UHGV virus genome: UHGV-0125291
Strand: one strand, 5' to 3'
DNA from: a virus
Length of the DNA: 13,212 bases
Part shown: piece after piece, positions 3,265-11,706 of the stretch
Position numbering within the stretch: position 1 is the first letter of the stretch
Layout of the letters: each line of letters opens with the position of its first letter
Made by a program: the position numbers and the translations under genes
Notes under the pieces: model-generated
Told to the model about the DNA's origin: nothing
Database searches by the model: none
What the model saw: only the letters and a program-made list of their open reading frames with translations

Positions 3265-3281
3265 ATTGCTCTAATAATTCC
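3265..3281 (+). promoter_or_regulatory. P1 C1-repressor operator-like site (ATTGCTCTAATAATTCC), overlapping a possible -35 (TTGCTC)
   Basis: 14 of 17 positions match the asymmetric P1 C1 operator consensus ATTGCTCTAATAAATTT (recalled from literature). It sits 2 nt after the stop of the upstream gene and is followed at a fixed 19-nt offset by ATTTTTAAAAC, as is the copy at 5406. Confidence 0.5.
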
Positions 3282-3289
3282 ATATTTTT

Positions 3290-3319
3290 AAAACGTGATG
3301 TACACTCATCACGTTTTTT
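3290..3319 (+). terminator. Rho-independent terminator
   Basis: An 11-bp stem AAAACGTGATG / CATCACGTTTT with a 6-nt loop (3301-3306) is followed by a T-run ending at 3319. Confidence 0.6.
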
Positions 3320-3330
3320 ATTAGAGCAAT
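3314..3330 (-). promoter_or_regulatory. second C1 operator-like site, inverted orientation
   Basis: The reverse complement of 3314-3330 is ATTGCTCTAATAAAAAA, a 14/17 match to the consensus. With the site at 3265-3281 it forms a 13-bp inverted repeat enclosing the terminator hairpin. Confidence 0.45.
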
Positions 3331-3564: not shown

Positions 3565-4827
3565 ATGAGCACTTCAGCACAAAACCAATCAATCGAAAAT
3601 GTATCTATCCCTGACGTCCTGAATGCCGGTATCCCGGCCATTATCCAGAACATCCGGGCCGCGCAACGCCGCGTTAGTTGTGATGACCTCACAGCGCGTT
3701 TTTTTGATAATGCGGTTCAGTCAGCGGAGATGCTTCACGCACAGCTTATTGATGTTTATAACGCAGAAGCTGATAGCCATAACTCCCTGGTAGATGCAGC
3801 TGAAAATATGCAGTTGGATCTCGGTCTGAAGGGTAAAGAAATTGAAGAGCTTCAGCTGGAAATTGAACATTTGAAACGCCAGCAACAGGACGCGATCGAC
3901 GATGCGACGCATGACGCCAACCAGCGTGCTGATAATGCCGAACGTATAAGCATTGAGCTGGAAACAAAACTCAATGAAATGACCGCGATGGTTGAACTGC
4001 GGAACTCACAGATTTCAACGCTAAAATCTCAATATAAAGAGATCATGAAACTTGATCCTTTTAACCTTGAGAAACGCTATAACAAAGCTAAAAGCGAGCG
4101 ACAGGAACTGCGTAAGCAGGTCGCCGACCTTAACCAACAGCTCAAAAAAACTATTAAAGATGCAAGCGAAGCGCGCGTGGCATTTGCTAATAAAAAAGCA
4201 GAGGTTACCGCGCTGGTTAATGAGAATGCCAAATTTGCGACGCTCAAGAAGGAAATGTATGGCATTACTGAGCGCCGTTTCCCTGCAAGCAAACTTCATC
4301 CGACGTTAGGGCAAATCTCCTTCTTCCCGCGCCTCCTGGCTTATGGGATCTCATCGCCTAAAGAGTTCAATAACGAGCGTCCTTATATCGTTTCTAAGCT
4401 GGACTTTGCTTATCAGTTCTGCTGCGACATGGGCTATGCCATTGATATCCGAATCAACGAATGGTTGATGCCAAACTTCCAGCCGTTGGCAATTTTCCGC
4501 GAGTTCCAGCCGGAAGGTTGGGTAGAGTTCTTCCATGAATTGATCTGTAAAGAGATGGAAAGCCGCCGCCCGGAATTGGTCCGTCGAGTTGAGTGGGCGC
4601 AAGAGGTTATGTTGGCAGATGCAGAGCTGCCGTTCGAACCGGAATTCATTGATGATCTGGCAACTAAAGGGCTGCATACCCTGTTTGATGTGGTTACCCG
4701 CCGTCATGAGCAGTTGGTTGTCGAATTGGGTTTAGAGGAAACTGCGGCAAGAAGACTTCTCGATGTTTGCTATGCACGTAGCGATGCATGGGAAAAAGAG
4801 AACGGCGGCACTATTTACGTTCGCTGA
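3565..4827 (+). CDS. coiled-coil protein of unknown function (420 aa) with a C-terminal globular domain
   Basis: Long ORF. Residues about 80-230 are a heptad-rich charged segment (EIEELQLEIEHLKRQQQ..., ELRKQVADLNQQLKK); the C-terminal roughly 190 aa is aromatic and Cys-containing. No catalytic motif is recognised. Confidence 0.8.
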   Translation: MSTSAQNQSIENVSIPDVLNAGIPAIIQNIRAAQRRVSCDDLTARFFDNAVQSAEMLHAQLIDVYNAEADSHNSLVDAAENMQLDLGLKGKEIEELQLEIEHLKRQQQDAIDDATHDANQRADNAERISIELETKLNEMTAMVELRNSQISTLKSQYKEIMKLDPFNLEKRYNKAKSERQELRKQVADLNQQLKKTIKDASEARVAFANKKAEVTALVNENAKFATLKKEMYGITERRFPASKLHPTLGQISFFPRLLAYGISSPKEFNNERPYIVSKLDFAYQFCCDMGYAIDIRINEWLMPNFQPLAIFREFQPEGWVEFFHELICKEMESRRPELVRRVEWAQEVMLADAELPFEPEFIDDLATKGLHTLFDVVTRRHEQLVVELGLEETAARRLLDVCYARSDAWEKENGGTIYVR

Positions 4828-4899: not shown

Positions 4900-5406
4900 T
4901 TGAGTATTTTCAATAAACACGCACACCAGGAACGTCCGTACATCGTCATAGTAGATATTGATGGGACGATATCAGAGGCAACGGAAGACAGGCTGCATTT
5001 ACTTCCACCACCTGGCAAAGGTGCATTAACAGAGCACTGGAACGAGTTTAACCTTGCCTGTGACACTGATGCTCCCATCACTCCAGTTATTGATATGGTG
5101 CGCCAGTTGTCCGGCATTTACACCCTCTGGTTTGTAACCGGGCGCTGTGAGATCGCAAGGGATAAAACACGAGCCTGGTTGCGTAAGCACGTAACAAATG
5201 GGGCTGAGCCTTTGCTATCTATGCGTCCTGCCACCGATGACAGAAATGACGGCCCAGCAAAGATTGATCTCCTTAAGAAAATTGGTCTAAGCAAAATTGC
5301 GTTCGCGCTGGAAGATAAGATTGAAGTGGCGCGTGTTTTCAGGAGGCACGGCGTGCTTACGTTAATGGTCAGGGAGTATGAAAACGCGCTTCTCCATCAA
5401 CAATAA
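4900..5406 (+). CDS. HAD-superfamily phosphatase-like protein
   Basis: TTG start at 4900 is 4 nt after AGGAGG (4890-4895). HAD motif I DxDGT is present (VIVDIDGTI), with a downstream Thr (FVTGR), Lys and LEDK consistent with motifs II-IV. Confidence 0.75.
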   Translation: MSIFNKHAHQERPYIVIVDIDGTISEATEDRLHLLPPPGKGALTEHWNEFNLACDTDAPITPVIDMVRQLSGIYTLWFVTGRCEIARDKTRAWLRKHVTNGAEPLLSMRPATDDRNDGPAKIDLLKKIGLSKIAFALEDKIEVARVFRRHGVLTLMVREYENALLHQQ

Positions 5407-5422
5407 TTGCTCTAATAAATCA
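5406..5422 (+). promoter_or_regulatory. third C1 operator-like site (ATTGCTCTAATAAATCA), overlapping a possible -35
   Basis: 15 of 17 positions match the C1 operator consensus. It starts at the last base of the HAD gene stop codon and is followed at the same 19-nt offset by ATTTTTAAAAC (5425-5435). Confidence 0.5.
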
Positions 5423-5455
5423 TGATTTTTAAAACAGAGAAAGTGAAAATAAAAA

Positions 5456-5476
5456 CATGCCGCAAGGCGCGGCATG
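5456..5476 (-). terminator. GC-rich hairpin acting as an intrinsic terminator in the minus orientation
   Basis: An 8-bp stem CATGCCGC / GCGGCATG with a 5-nt loop. On the minus strand it is followed by UUUUUAUUUU (complement of 5441-5455); on the plus strand there is no U-tract, so there it would be a 5'-UTR structure. Confidence 0.4.
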
Positions 5477-5504
5477 TATCCAATCAATCACAGGAGCTGA
5501 AGAT

Positions 5505-5591
5505 ATGAACACGGCATTCAAAATCATTATGACCGCGATCTATTTCTGGCTGTTCTTTATCACTTTTGGCAGCATTGTCGCGCATGGGTAA
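5505..5591 (+). CDS. small hydrophobic peptide (28 aa, MNTAFKIIMTAIYFWLFFITFGSIVAHG), one predicted TM helix
   Basis: ATG 5505 is 8 nt after AGGAG (5492-5496) and the stop is TAA 5589-5591. It is below the 60-aa cutoff of the ORF track. It lies downstream of the operator/promoter module at 5406-5435. Confidence 0.35.
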   Translation: MNTAFKIIMTAIYFWLFFITFGSIVAHG

Positions 5592-5626
5592 GGGGAGTAT
5601 ATTAGCCATTTGGAACCCCACGGTCT

Positions 5627-5654
5627 CTTGCGGGTTTAATTAAGAACCCGCAAG
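5627..5654. other. perfect 10-bp stem-loop (CTTGCGGGTT-8 nt-AACCCGCAAG), not a canonical terminator
   Basis: Located 17 nt from the hsdR stop. The A-run is 3' on the plus strand and the U-run is 5' on the minus strand, so neither orientation gives hairpin plus U-tract. Confidence 0.4.
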
Positions 5655-5670
5655 AAAAACACGAATTGGG

Positions 5671-8600
5671 CTATATTTTTCCGCCTACGCCTTTAAACTT
5701 CTCAATAAACGAGACGATTTTCTGGAAAACTGCCTGTTTTTTCGTTTTATATTGCGGATTTAAAGGACTGAGTCTGGGCAGTGTCTCGTTTAATTCCGTG
5801 CCATTTTCGGTGGCGTATTCGCGTTTTAAAGACGTGCGAATATAGCGTTTCGCCGCCTCTTCATTGAGATTTTCTTCTTTTATCAATGCTTCTGCTTCAC
5901 GTTGCTGTTCGCGTTGAGCAAACGTAAAGAATGCGTCAATGATGCTGGCTTTGTCCGGTAAATCATCCAGGTTCGTTTGCTGAATAAAATCGACCACCAG
6001 GCCCTCTTTAGCACGGTTCCCCAGGCTTGAACGAATTAAGCGTTTGACCTCTTCGATCATTTCGCCCTTGCCTTTATTTTGTCTGTTGTGTTCGAAAATC
6101 AGTCCAAGGATATAATCCAGGTTTATTTCCTGAGACTTCAGCAAATCGACCTCAAAAACTACGTCATCCCAGTCAGTGGTTGATTTCTCTTTTTTCTCAG
6201 CTTCTTTCTCACGGCGCTGCCAGTCGCGAATATCGTTATAGGCAGAACGATAATCCTGAATCTTGCGATCAGCAGGGAGACGAATTGTTTGCAATTCAGC
6301 GAACTTTTCATCATCCACATAATGTTCTGCTTTGAATTTTTCTACCGCAACAGGATCGCTAAGATCGATTTGTTGCAGGGCTTTCAGCGTGGCAAATTCA
6401 TCATAGTTTTGCAGGATGTTCTCGGCACGCAGGTATTCACCAAACAGTTTAACGAAGTCTTTCTTCTCTTTTTCACTTTCAATACTGGTAGGGTCAGGGA
6501 ACCGTTGTTCCAGTTCTGAAACTACTGTCATGAAGCCGCGTTTAGCTTCACCAGTGGCAGCATCAGTAAAGCCTTCCATATACTCTGCATAACTCTTTTC
6601 TAAAACCACATTTTTGGTGTTTTTGTCACCAAACAGCGTTATGGCATCAATAGTTGAGCGTTCCAGATCCCGGAAAGTGACGATATTACCGAAGGTTTTA
6701 GTTGCATCATAAATACGGTTGGTGCGGGAAAATGCCTGCATCAGGCCGTGAAAACGCAAGTTTTTATCGACGAATAGCGTGTTCAATGTTGGAGCATCGA
6801 AGCCGGTTAAAAACATCCCCACGACAATTAACAGATCGATATCCTGATTTTTAACCCGTTGGGCTAAATCGCGATAGTAGTTCTGAAAACCGTTACCGTC
6901 GGTGCTGAAGTTAGTTTTAAAATAGCTGTTATACTCACGAATTGCAGCGTCAAGAAACTCTTTAGCACTGCTGTCCATTGCGCTGGTATCAAAAGTTTCA
7001 TCGGAAATTTCACCAATGGCATTTTGTTCTTCATTGGCGGCAAAGGAGAAGATTGTCGCAACACGCAGCGGTTTATAGGTAGCCGATTTATTAGCTGCTT
7101 CCTCTTGTAACCGTTTAAACGTCGCATAATAGGCTTTCGCGGCATCCACGCTGCTCACTGCCAACATAGCATTAAAACCTTTTGAGCCAGGGAAGGTACG
7201 GTGAGTTTTCTGGCGGAAATTATTCAGAATATATTGCGTGATTTCCTGAATACGCATGGGATGAAGAAACGCCTGCTGATTTTCAGCCGCACTTAGTTTT
7301 TTCTCGTCAGTTTCTGTCTCTAAAGACTTAAACTGTGGCCGCACATCGTTGTAGTCCACCTTGAATTTGAGCACTTTTTCGTCACGAATCGCATCGGTAA
7401 TTACATACGAATGCAATTCACGACCAAATACGCTGGCGGTTGTTTCTGAGCCTAAGGCGTTTTCCGGGAAAATAGGGGTGCCGGTAAAACCAAACTGATA
7501 ATAGCGTTTGAATTTCTTCTTCAGGTTTTTCTGCGCTTCTCCAAACTGGCTGCGGTGGCATTCATCAAATATAAACACCACTTGCTGATTGTATACAGGC
7601 AGGTCGCTTTCTGCTTTCATCAGGTTATTGAGTTTCTGAATAGTAGTGACGATAATTTTGTTATCGTCCTTATCCAGATTTCGTTTAAGGCCTGCGGTAT
7701 TTTCCGAGCCGTTGACGCTGTCTGGCGAAAAACGCTGATATTCCTTCATGGTCTGGTAATCGAGGTCTTTCCTGTCGACCACAAAGAAGACTTTATCAAT
7801 AAAGTCCAGCTCTGTTGCCAGACGCGCGGCTTTAAAGCTGGTGAGGGTTTTACCAGAACCGGTAGTGTGCCAGATATACCCACCGCTTTCCGGTTTTGAC
7901 CAGTTCTTCGCTGTAAAGGAACTCTTAATTTTCCACAGAATGCGCTCGGTGGCGGCAATCTGGTACGGTCGCATCACCAGTAGCGTCTGACTACTGTCAA
8001 AAACGCTGTAGTTCACCAGAACATTCAGCAGAGTATGTTTCTGGAAAAAGGTAGCGGTAAAGTCTTTGAGGTCTTTAATCAGCGTGTTGTCTGATTTCGC
8101 CCAGTTCATGGTGAAGTCAAAACTGTTTTTATCGCGCTTTGTCGTGTTGGCAAAATAACGGGTATCGGTGCCGTTAGAAATGACAAACAGTTGCAGATAC
8201 TTAAACAGGGAATTTTCGCTGTTAAAACTCTCTTTACTGTAACGATGTATCTGGTTGAAAGCCTCACGAATCGCCACCCCGCGTTTTTTTAGTTCGATTT
8301 GCACCAGCGGTAAACCATTAACCAGGATCGTGACGTCATAACGGTTAGCATGAGAACCCGTCTGTTCAAACTGCTGGATAATCTGCACCTTATTGCGCAT
8401 GAGATTCTTTTTATCTATCAAATAGATGTTCTCAAGTCGCCCGTCGTCAAAAATAAAGTCGCAGATATAGTCGATATGGATTTTACGGGTCTTATCCAGA
8501 ATGCCATCGCTGGGGTTGTCCAGATACTGCTCCGTGAAGCGCCGCCACTCGCTGTCATTAAACATCACACCATTGAGGCTCTGAAGCTGTTCCCGAACAT

Positions 8601-8787
8601 TAGACAGCATTGCCGACTGTGATTTTACGGAAATAAATTCATAACCCTGATTCCGCAGGTCCTGAATCAGTTCACGTTCCAGGTCCGATTCGCTCTGGTA
8701 GCTGTCGCTTGTTTGCTCAGCTTTGATGTACTTATCAAGGACGATAAAGTTATTGGATTCAGCAATGGTGTGTGTTTGATGAGTCAT
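5671..8787 (-). CDS. hsdR: Type I restriction enzyme R subunit (HsdR), EcoR124 (Type IC) family
   Basis: 1038 aa. Walker A ([11 protein letters not shown]) and a DEAD-box-like motif (FDECH) are present. The N-terminus [24 protein letters not shown] matches EcoR124I HsdR as recalled. RBS AAGGA lies 5 nt before the ATG. Confidence 0.95.
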
Positions 8788-8908
8788 AGCGCATCCTTTG
8801 TGCCGCCTGGCAAGGGCCGGAAAGGCGTTAAGAGTGACTTCCGGCGCGTAAAAAATAGTCTATATACTGACCGGATGTTAAGGAGGCCCGGTCGGTAGCA
8901 ATGGTCAA

Positions 8909-10143
<1,235 letters not shown>

Positions 10144-10147
<4 letters not shown>

Positions 10148-11706
10148 GATTGCGCCTCGTCACCTTCAATCTTTGCCACAATTGCATCAATATCTTTACG
10201 CAACTGGTCGATTTTGCTGACCGTGGTTTTCAGCTCAGCATTCAGCTCACCGATATCGATAATTTCGCGGTTATCTTTCGCTTCCACATAGCTGCTCACC
10301 GACAGGTTATAGTCATTCGCGACAACAGTCTCAAACGTGACAGATTTTGCCAGATGAGCAACATCTTCCTTGCTGGCAAATACCTGCATAATCTGTTCGA
10401 TATGGGCATCGGTCAGGATATTGTTGTTGGTCTCTTTTTTGAACAGTTCGCTGGCGTCAATAAACTGAACGTTGGTATCCGTTTTATGTTTAGACAGAAC
10501 CAGAATGTTTACGGCAATGGTGGTGCCAAAGAACAGGTTCGGTGCCAGTGAAATCACGGTTTCGACATAGTTATTGTCGACCAGATACTGACGGATTTTC
10601 TGCTCCGCGCCGCCACGGTAAAAAATACCCGGGAAGCAGACAATCGCAGCACGACCTTTGGCCGAAAGATAGTTCAGCGCATGTAATACAAACGCAAAGT
10701 CAGCTTTGGATTTGGGGGCCAGAACGCCAGCCGGGGCAAAACGCTCATCGTTAATCAGCGTCGGGTCATCGCTGCCAATCCATTTCACCGAATACGGCGG
10801 GTTAGAAACGATGGCATCAAACGGTTTTTCATCTCTGAAGTGCGGCTCAGTCAGCGTATTGCCCAGCTTGATATCAAACTTGTCGTAGTTGATGTTGTGC
10901 AAAAACATGTTCATACGCGCCAGGTTATAGGTCGTATGGTTGATTTCCTGACCAAAAAAACCTTCTTCGATGATATGGTTATCAAACTGTTTTTTCGCCT
11001 GCAACAACAGTGAGCCGGAACCCGCTGCCGGGTCGTAGATTTTGTTAACGCTGGTCTGCCCGTGCATAGCCAGTTGTGCAATCAGCTTGGAGACGTGCTG
11101 CGGTGTAAAGAACTCGCCGCCTGACTTACCAGCATTCGCCGCATAGTTAGAAATCAGGAACTCATAGGCATCACCGAACAGGTCAATCTGATGTTCGTTG
11201 AAGTCACCAAGTTTTAACCCTTCAACCCCTTTCAGAACCGCAGCCAGGCGGGCATTTTTATCTTTAACGGTGTTACCCAGGCGGTTACTGGTGGTATCGA
11301 AATCAGCAAACAAACCTTTGATGTCAGCTTCTGAAGGGTAACCGTAAGCAGAACTTTCGATAGCAACGAAGATGCTGTTTAAATCTGCATTCAGTCTGTC
11401 ATTGGTATTTGCTTTCGCAGCTACGTTGCAGAAAAGCTGACTGGGGTAGATGAAGTAGCCTTTAGTTTTGATGGCATCGTCTTTAATGTCATCAGTAATT
11501 ACGCTGTCATCCAGTTTCGCATAACAGATACTGTCATCACCGGCTTCAATATAACTGGAAAAATTTTCGCTGATAAAACGGTAGAAAAGCGCGCCCAGAA
11601 CGTATTGCTTAAAATCCCATCCATCGACCGAACCCCTGACATCGTTAGCAATTTGCCAGATTTGACGATGAAGCTCTGCACGTTGTTGAATACTTGTCAT
11701 TTTCAT
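10144..11706 (-). CDS. hsdM: Type I R-M DNA methyltransferase subunit (HsdM), N6-adenine
   Basis: 520 aa. The AdoMet motif ([10 protein letters not shown]) and the catalytic NPPY motif (SNPPYS) are present. A second Met 2 codons in (ATG 11698-11700) is an alternative start. Confidence 0.95.

Follow-up and report, generated by a model that had tools for sequence, protein, structure and literature searches.

What is encoded in the short interval between the last phage backbone gene and the 3′-end of hsdR in the viral genome UHGV-0125291? The stretch analyzed, hereafter called the window, comprises 13,212 nucleotides of this genome, and an earlier note made from its sequence alone had pointed to an unannotated, hydrophobic open reading frame (ORF) of 28 codons with a strong ribosome binding site, flanked by two hairpins and situated between a HAD-type gene (pap) and hsdR. 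We consider it likely that this ORF is a genuine small membrane-peptide gene of the phage P1 backbone, and that it forms the first cistron of a unit controlled by the C1 repressor through operator Op88. In the window it appears as an orphan, convergent with hsdR, because an hsdRSM cassette has replaced the rest of the operon, from pmgT to humD. It would thus border on an established variable region, pmgT-humD having been designated "variable region 8" in a survey of P1-like phage-plasmids (PMC9603915).

The ORF, recognized from the ORF list, its translation and its conservation, occupies 5505..5591 on the plus strand, beginning with ATG (5505) and ending with TAA (5589-5591); its translation is MNTAFKIIMTAIYFWLFFITFGSIVAHG. 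The arrangement set out in the earlier note was confirmed, with small corrections placing the hairpins at 5455-5477 and 5626-5655. The peptide has a grand average of hydropathy (GRAVY) of 1.33, its best 19-residue Kyte-Doolittle window scores 2.14, and the 19-residue mean is 2.0-2.1 in every lineage. AlphaFold2 modeling of a 53-residue homologue yields a helix over residues 2-23, with a predicted local distance difference test score of 84-90, followed by a low-confidence tail. These values bear out the idea of one transmembrane helix, and the product is predicted to be a single-pass membrane helix. When the 264-nt intergenic region was subjected to 5000 dinucleotide shuffles, 1.5% produced an ORF of at least 28 codons with a Shine-Dalgarno (SD) sequence and an ATG, while none (0/5000) produced such an ORF of equal hydrophobicity. 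The SD sequence AGGAG (5492-5496) is located 8 nt upstream of the ATG within a leader, CAATCAATCACAGGAGC (5481..5497, plus strand), that is near-invariant across lineages; the motif CAATCAyxGGAGC recurs with hardly any change in all of them, at an SD-ATG distance of 5-8 nt. Any pairing of the SD sequence beyond the leader hairpin is weak (about -3.6 kcal/mol).

P1 itself carries the same ORF, with the translation MNTAFKIIMAAIYFWLFSITFGGIVAHG; between its TAA and the ATG of pmgT stands GGGGGATGC, so that 8 nt separate the stop from the pmgT start (TAA-N8-ATG) and the pmgT SD sequence abuts the stop codon. Because of this proximity the ORF is, by position, the first, unannotated cistron of the pmgT operon that Op88 controls in P1, placed for translational coupling. 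About 81 of 82 P1-type loci have it intact irrespective of what lies downstream, the exception (L051) reading through into a rearrangement. The claim that the ORF is unannotated holds for the P1 reference (NC_005856), which lists no gene between the promoters and pmgT, and fails for other GenBank and RefSeq records, which annotate a 44-residue form starting at ATG 5457 and named "hypothetical" or "membrane protein." Examples are the "membrane protein" of SJ46, Orf75 of phi456, and WP_001426503.1; one sequence variant of this form occurs on at least 1000 contigs. The longer start was rejected: it falls within the leader hairpin, 11 of 41 unique P1-type haplotypes have a shift or a stop in its frame, and the relatives have no ATG at that position, for which reasons we take 5505 as the conserved start. 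The ORF has been predicted many times in databases, usually with the wrong start, and our search of the literature found no discussion of it.

Four diverged relatives place the ORF in a wider setting. In Cronobacter phage JK004, whose Pap is 72.5% identical, the whole module directly follows pap. It comprises the operator (ATTGCTCTAATAAATAT), -35 and -10 boxes, a hairpin that differs in sequence, the leader (CCAATCAATCACcGGAGC), and an ORF of 53 codons (MHLIFKLAITAFYAWMLTVVITSFKPDANMKAS...) whose stop overlaps the ATG of the next gene. The GenBank entry for JK004 gives only a 38-residue ORF from an internal ATG (3632), whereas the conserved SD sequence and start define 53 residues from 3587 (3587-3748 in our locus L088). 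Loci L169 and L170/171 have the same module with 53-residue variants that are 66-71% identical to that of JK004, and L172 (2834-3001) has it with a 48-residue variant, MNTAFKLAMAAFYFWIFCIAFNGLVKAAPTLQ..., which also occurs in Citrobacter and Salmonella records; database names put the diverged variants in Enterobacter, Salmonella and Citrobacter. L172 contains no pap, the module directly following pmgS and thus being independent of pap. The stop and the next start overlap as ATGA in JK004, L169 and L170, and as TGATG in L172. The gene that follows in the relatives encodes a winged-helix-like protein of 104-105 residues, 55% identical between JK004 and L172, and this gene has no counterpart in P1 or the window; nor was homology found between the downstream genes of JK004 and either the window or the pmgT-lxr region of P1. 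Residues M1, K6, A11 and W15 are invariant across the lineages, and the helix remains hydrophobic. In the related elements the ORF is thus conserved as a coding sequence. A word-indexed search and an exhaustive hidden Markov model search of 1.84 billion representatives returned only P1-group variants (11 hits in total), and no further JK004-like elements were found in IMG/VR or PLSDB. The conserved unit therefore consists of the operator, the promoter, the hairpin, the SD sequence and the transmembrane-coding part of the ORF, and between major lineages the variable region starts inside the ORF or just past it.

The operator- and promoter-like module suspected upstream of the ORF can now be named. 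The sequence ATTGCTCTAATAAATCA at 5406..5422 (plus strand) shares one base, the last, with the pap stop codon and is operator Op88 (OpmgT) of the C1 repressor, the homologous site being annotated in the P1 record. It departs at 2 positions from the 17-bp asymmetric C1 consensus ATTGCTCTAATAAATTT and is near-invariant in the four diverged relatives. A search of the window with this consensus gave three operator-like sites against 0.08 expected, the other two (3265-3281 on the plus strand and 3314-3330 on the minus strand) lying before pmgR and corresponding to Op86a/b (OpmgRa/b) of P1. Two predicted σ70 promoters on the plus strand were carried over from the P1 annotation: P2pmgT, with -35 TTGCTC at 5407-5412 and -10 TAAAAC at 5430-5435, and P1pmgT, with its -35 at 5422-5427 (ATGATT; TTGATT in P1) and -10 GAAAAT at 5445-5450. 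Neither was called by a simple promoter scan of the window. The combination of TTGATT, a 17-nt spacer and xAxAAT is kept, in spacing and boxes, in JK004, L169, L170 and L172. Given the position of the P1pmgT -10 box, transcription is predicted to start near 5457, at the foot of the leader hairpin.

The base change in the P1pmgT -35 box of the window (T to A at 5422) occurs in only 3 of 59 unique haplotypes from the loci fetched and has no general link to the hsd-type elements; it would weaken transcription of the orphan ORF toward hsdR. A further promoter-like sequence, TTGTCG-17-TATATT at 5575-5603 on the plus strand, spans the junction between P1 and hsd sequence and is directed, in antisense, into the 3′-end of hsdR. 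It is probably due to chance, two such sites having been found in the region where 0.9 were expected.

The leader hairpin (5455..5477, plus strand; arms 5455-5463 and 5469-5477) has 9 bp and the loop AAGGC, with a folding energy of -16.3 kcal/mol (z = -5.0). It begins about 7 nt past the -10 box, which is the predicted 5′-end of the mRNA, and this distance is kept in all lineages even as the stem sequences differ: ACATGCCGC/GCGGCATGT in P1, GGCCGC/GCGGCC in JK004, GGCAGTCAC/GTGACTGCC in L169, and AAGGCCAC/GTGGCCTT in L172. Two or three types of Watson-Crick pair are found at 6 of the 9 pair positions, as counted by script with the arms registered by hand, a MAFFT alignment having mis-registered them. 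Three of four single-sided stem changes give a G.U pair in plus-strand RNA and an A.C mismatch on the minus strand, namely C5463T (18 loci), C5456T (L162), and the G.U pair of L170/171. The earlier note had described this hairpin as stable and, in the opposite orientation, as a good intrinsic terminator. The stability stands, and on the minus strand the stem is followed by TTTTTATTTT, the sole terminator-like site in a scan of 5300-5800. The T-run is, however, the A-rich -10/discriminator of the P1 clade and is absent in the relatives. A minus-strand terminator as the conserved primary role of 5455-5477 was therefore rejected, the T-run being clade-specific and the wobbles mostly fitting the plus strand, and for the same reasons the conserved element is best read as a 5′-terminal stem-loop of the mRNA, which probably protects the transcript. 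In the window the hairpin may stop read-through from hsdR by accident.

Substitution patterns point to selection on the encoded protein. Among the 53-residue variants the ratio of non-synonymous to synonymous substitution rates (dN/dS, Nei-Gojobori) is 0.22-0.39, with Fisher p values of 0.03, 0.0013 and 0.0002, and in the two other frames the proportions of synonymous (pS) and non-synonymous (pN) differences are about equal. Of the distinct changes within the P1 clade, 9 are synonymous and 11 non-synonymous, where only 21% synonymous would be expected (binomial p = 0.014; pN/pS about 0.33). For comparison, dN/dS for pap between P1 and the window is 0.20. In the hsd-type elements the ORF occurs as 12 distinct alleles, every one of them intact, and relaxed selection in these elements, which we also considered, is not evident (8 synonymous and 8 non-synonymous changes, compared with 4 and 3). 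By these comparisons the ORF behaves as a real protein-coding gene under purifying selection.

On this basis the following course of events may be proposed. In a lysogen, C1 bound at 5406-5422 would occlude the overlapping -35 boxes and keep the unit off. Upon infection or induction, transcription would start about 7 nt past the -10 box, near 5457, yielding an mRNA that opens with the conserved stem-loop, most likely a 5′-terminal stabilizer. The strong, conserved SD sequence would then direct translation of the peptide and its insertion into the inner membrane, and in P1 and the relatives the ribosomes terminating on the ORF could be handed directly to the start of the next gene. During the early lytic phase the peptide probably engages a host target within the membrane. 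Its function is likely accessory and non-essential, a role that fits the finding by CRISPR interference that the neighboring pap and pmgT are non-essential for plaque formation (PMC10695390). A more ambitious version of this scheme, which we hold to be doubtful, makes the peptide an early effector of the whole P1 group, made as C1 repression lifts and readying the cell for lytic growth by binding or perturbing a machine of the host inner membrane (for example a transporter, a sensor kinase, or a division or defence component), with the promoter-to-ORF segment serving as an "expression head" for the cargo of region 8.

Several observations weigh against a small membrane-peptide gene. The start site and the translation are predictions, and the main -35 box is weakened in the window. 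The stem variant in L030 favors the minus strand. From one lineage to another (28, 48 and 53 residues) the C-terminal tails either show no relationship or are missing, and the transmembrane segment is only about 25-30% identical between the P1 and JK004 types, so that the P1 form could be a truncated remnant. There is no homology to any characterized protein, which makes any activity a guess; searches of Pfam, NCBIfam, PHROG and PADLOC gave no match for the peptide at a meaningful E-value. The selection statistics come from a very short ORF and four to five lineages, and the binomial test ignores transition bias. Limited though they are by length and by the few lineages, they point one way.

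Two competing explanations deny the peptide a function of its own. The ORF might be translated only as a coupling leader that loads ribosomes onto the downstream cargo, its peptide being functionless and the copy in the window a functionless leftover. This would account for a stop that in each lineage adjoins or overlaps the following start while the downstream genes differ (pmgT in P1, the winged-helix-like gene elsewhere), for the highly variable C-terminal tails, and for the tolerance of an IS1 truncation in IncF plasmids. It does not account so readily for a dN/dS below 1 in the coding frame only, for the retention of the hydrophobic helix and of K6, A11 and W15 across lineages whose synonymous sites are saturated, or for the 12 intact hsd-type alleles, which have nothing left to couple to; the stop-to-start geometry of P1 and its relatives is absent in the window, where the downstream gene is gone. 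We therefore judge the leader explanation unlikely, yet the most serious of the rivals. Quite improbable, in our estimate, is a chance ORF in the 5′ untranslated region of the pmgT operon, kept by constraint on RNA or DNA. The missing annotation in the P1 reference, a share of variable nucleotide sites in the ORF (about 19%) that resembles its surroundings, and the many non-synonymous polymorphisms within the P1 clade could be cited for it. Set against these are the SD sequence, ATG and frame kept in lineages of heavily diverged nucleotide sequence, a synonymous excess that is specific to the coding frame, and the failure of any of the 5000 shuffles to give an equally hydrophobic SD-preceded ORF.

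The earlier note had likened the locus to type I toxin-antitoxin systems, holin-like peptides or small regulators; only the last comparison survives, a small membrane protein or regulator being viable and the toxin and holin readings unsupported. As a type I system, the ORF would encode a membrane toxin checked by an antisense RNA ending at the minus-strand terminator 5477-5455. The peptide is suitably small and very hydrophobic (28 residues, GRAVY 1.33), the P1 clade has a good minus-strand hairpin with a T-run, and a weak -10-like sequence, CATAAT at 5531-5526 on the minus strand, could give rise to a transcript of about 70 nt that spans the SD sequence and ATG. As an antisense promoter this candidate was rejected, since it has no -35 box and is not conserved in the relatives, and a scan of 5300-5800, admittedly crude, found no minus-strand promoter. 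Furthermore, the relatives keep the hairpin and lack the T-run, the wobble pairs favor plus-strand RNA by 3 to 1, and the unit is controlled by a protein repressor and abuts the start of the next gene in an operon. No toxin or small RNA family was matched in Rfam, Pfam or NCBIfam, the only Rfam match (GcvB, 18.9 bits against a gathering score of 42) being due to chance. A toxin of this type is thus highly improbable, and a holin-like lysis peptide is barely credible. For the latter speak a single transmembrane helix and the phage origin; the promoter, however, is of the early, C1-controlled type and not Lpa-dependent late, the neighbors are pap and pmgT or hsdR with no endolysin or lysis genes adjacent, the 28-residue peptide lacks a charged C-terminal tail (the P1-type peptide ends in ...IVAHG), and no PHROG or Pfam holin was matched.

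A small membrane-peptide gene may also be compared with known systems. Type I toxins such as Hok/Gef, Ldr, Ibs, TisB, ShoB and Zor are alike in size, extreme hydrophobicity and a structured 5′ leader; the small ORF differs in having no detectable antisense RNA gene, no similarity to these families, a protein repressor, and a place as first cistron of an operon. MgrB, AcrZ, MgtS and KdpF are small inner-membrane regulators of enterobacteria. They share with the ORF product a single helix in fewer than 50 residues, likely intramembrane contacts, and conserved aromatic-rich helix positions (Y/F13 and W15), whereas the small ORF is phage-encoded, repressor-controlled and without sequence similarity to them. 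The leader resembles the 5′-terminal stem-loop stabilizers of the ompA type, reportedly described by Emory, Bouvet and Belasco in 1992, in that a stable hairpin, conserved by covariation, stands at the predicted first nucleotides of the transcript; it differs in that the hairpin DNA of the P1 clade could also terminate minus-strand transcription. Another close comparison is the Op88/OpmgT-pmgT operon of P1 (annotation of Lobocka et al. 2004, NC_005856), which shares with the window the operator, the predicted promoters and the DNA as far as the ORF stop at about 96% identity. The window differs from it in the T to A change of the main -35 box and in the replacement of pmgT-humD by hsdRSM.

The small ORF and its conserved regulatory head do not constitute a new kind of system. 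P1 is among the best-studied phages, and phage-plasmids of its type abound and carry genes for resistance and defence. A conserved gene missed by the reference annotation is a concrete and easily tested addition to the P1 gene map, the more so as it stands directly behind a classical C1 operator whose targets, pmgT/U/V, are annotated only as putative.

With respect to its wider context, the window belongs to a P1-like phage-plasmid. It is collinear with P1 over a pmgP-ppp-pmgQ-pmgR-pmgS-pap block and again over a phd-doc-pdcA-pdcB block; between these, pmgT-pmgU-pmgV-upfM/N/O-hot-lxr-humD of P1 is absent and a minus-strand type IC hsdR-hsdS-hsdM cassette is in its place. The last backbone gene before the module is pap (4900..5406, plus strand), encoding a HAD-type 3′-phosphatase 95-99% identical to Pap of P1 and P1-like phages. 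The cassette (5671..11706, minus strand) belongs to the EcoR124 family, as recognized from its ORFs, RefSeq names and comparison with P1 and phi456, and consists of hsdR (5671-8787; 3′-end at 5671, convergent with the small ORF), hsdS (8909-10147) and hsdM (10144-11706), all on the minus strand. The left junction lies at 5592..5600, reading TAAGGGG|AGTATATT where P1 has TAAGGGGGATGCATG, the SD sequence and start of pmgT. Homology to P1 stops at 5595, 4 nt past the stop codon of the small ORF. The left limit of variable region 8 in the P1 clade is thereby placed exactly, just past this stop. Only two downstream contexts occur among the 85 loci fetched, pmgT (about 57) and the hsd cassette (about 26). 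The small ORF with its surroundings (301 bp) matches 920 Escherichia coli records, 898 of the 928 matching places being plasmid-borne, as well as 869 PLSDB plasmids (90-99% identity) and phages P1, P7 and other P1-like phages.

Replacement by cassettes of the type that orphaned the small ORF has been known since the 1990s. According to the P1 GenBank record, the flanks of the R124/3 and EcoDXXI hsd loci match the DNA on either side at 96-98% identity, and in such P1-flanked type IC loci (EcoR124/R124-3 and EcoDXXI) the junctions are the same, with the small ORF beyond hsdR and the 3′ part of P1 humD with phd-doc upstream of hsdM. These loci are said to have been the subject of a 1997 paper by Tyndall et al. 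in Mol Microbiol. In the window the P1-type backbone segment that holds the cassette is otherwise complete, while in IncF plasmids the P1 flank is cut by IS1. Restriction-modification systems are among the genes most often swapped between phage-plasmids and plasmids (PMC10879196).

In the IncF conjugative plasmids pYDC107_184 (3950-4090 of L086) and p33673_IncF (L087), the end of IS1 abuts codon 4 of the small ORF. The operator, hairpin, SD sequence and start are thereby removed, codons 4-28 remain, and hsdR with its own hairpin is intact. Since these plasmids carry the cassette next to a truncated ORF, the hsd cassette is evidently independent of the ORF. A tblastn survey gave many similar matches of 27 residues in conjugative or mobilizable plasmids. 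A fragment of the P1 gene therefore travels with the cassette, the type IC restriction cassette having taken a piece of the small gene into IncF plasmids.

The second hairpin (5626..5655; arms 5626-5636 and 5645-5655), between the convergent small ORF and hsdR, is part of the hsd cassette and is also present next to hsdR in the IncF plasmids. It has 11 bp and a folding energy of about -22 kcal/mol (z = -5.4 on the plus and -3.9 on the minus strand), with no T-run or U-tract following it on either strand. On the hsdR strand a U-run precedes the stem rather than following it, and so for neither of the convergent transcripts does the hairpin qualify as a canonical intrinsic terminator; it may be a 3′-end stabilizer or a weak bidirectional barrier. 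The convergent arrangement of hsdR and the small ORF is a by-product of the cassette replacement, and antisense read-through from hsdR across the ORF, as far as 5455, is plausible from the layout.

Phage phi456 (L003) shows 98.7% identity to the window over 98% of its length. In the hsdS region (12530-14967), however, its annotation gives three separate ORFs, one of them named "baseplate hub protein," as against one hsdS of 412 residues in the window (8909-10147); this difference could reflect a variable or rearranged specificity gene, or a mis-annotation.

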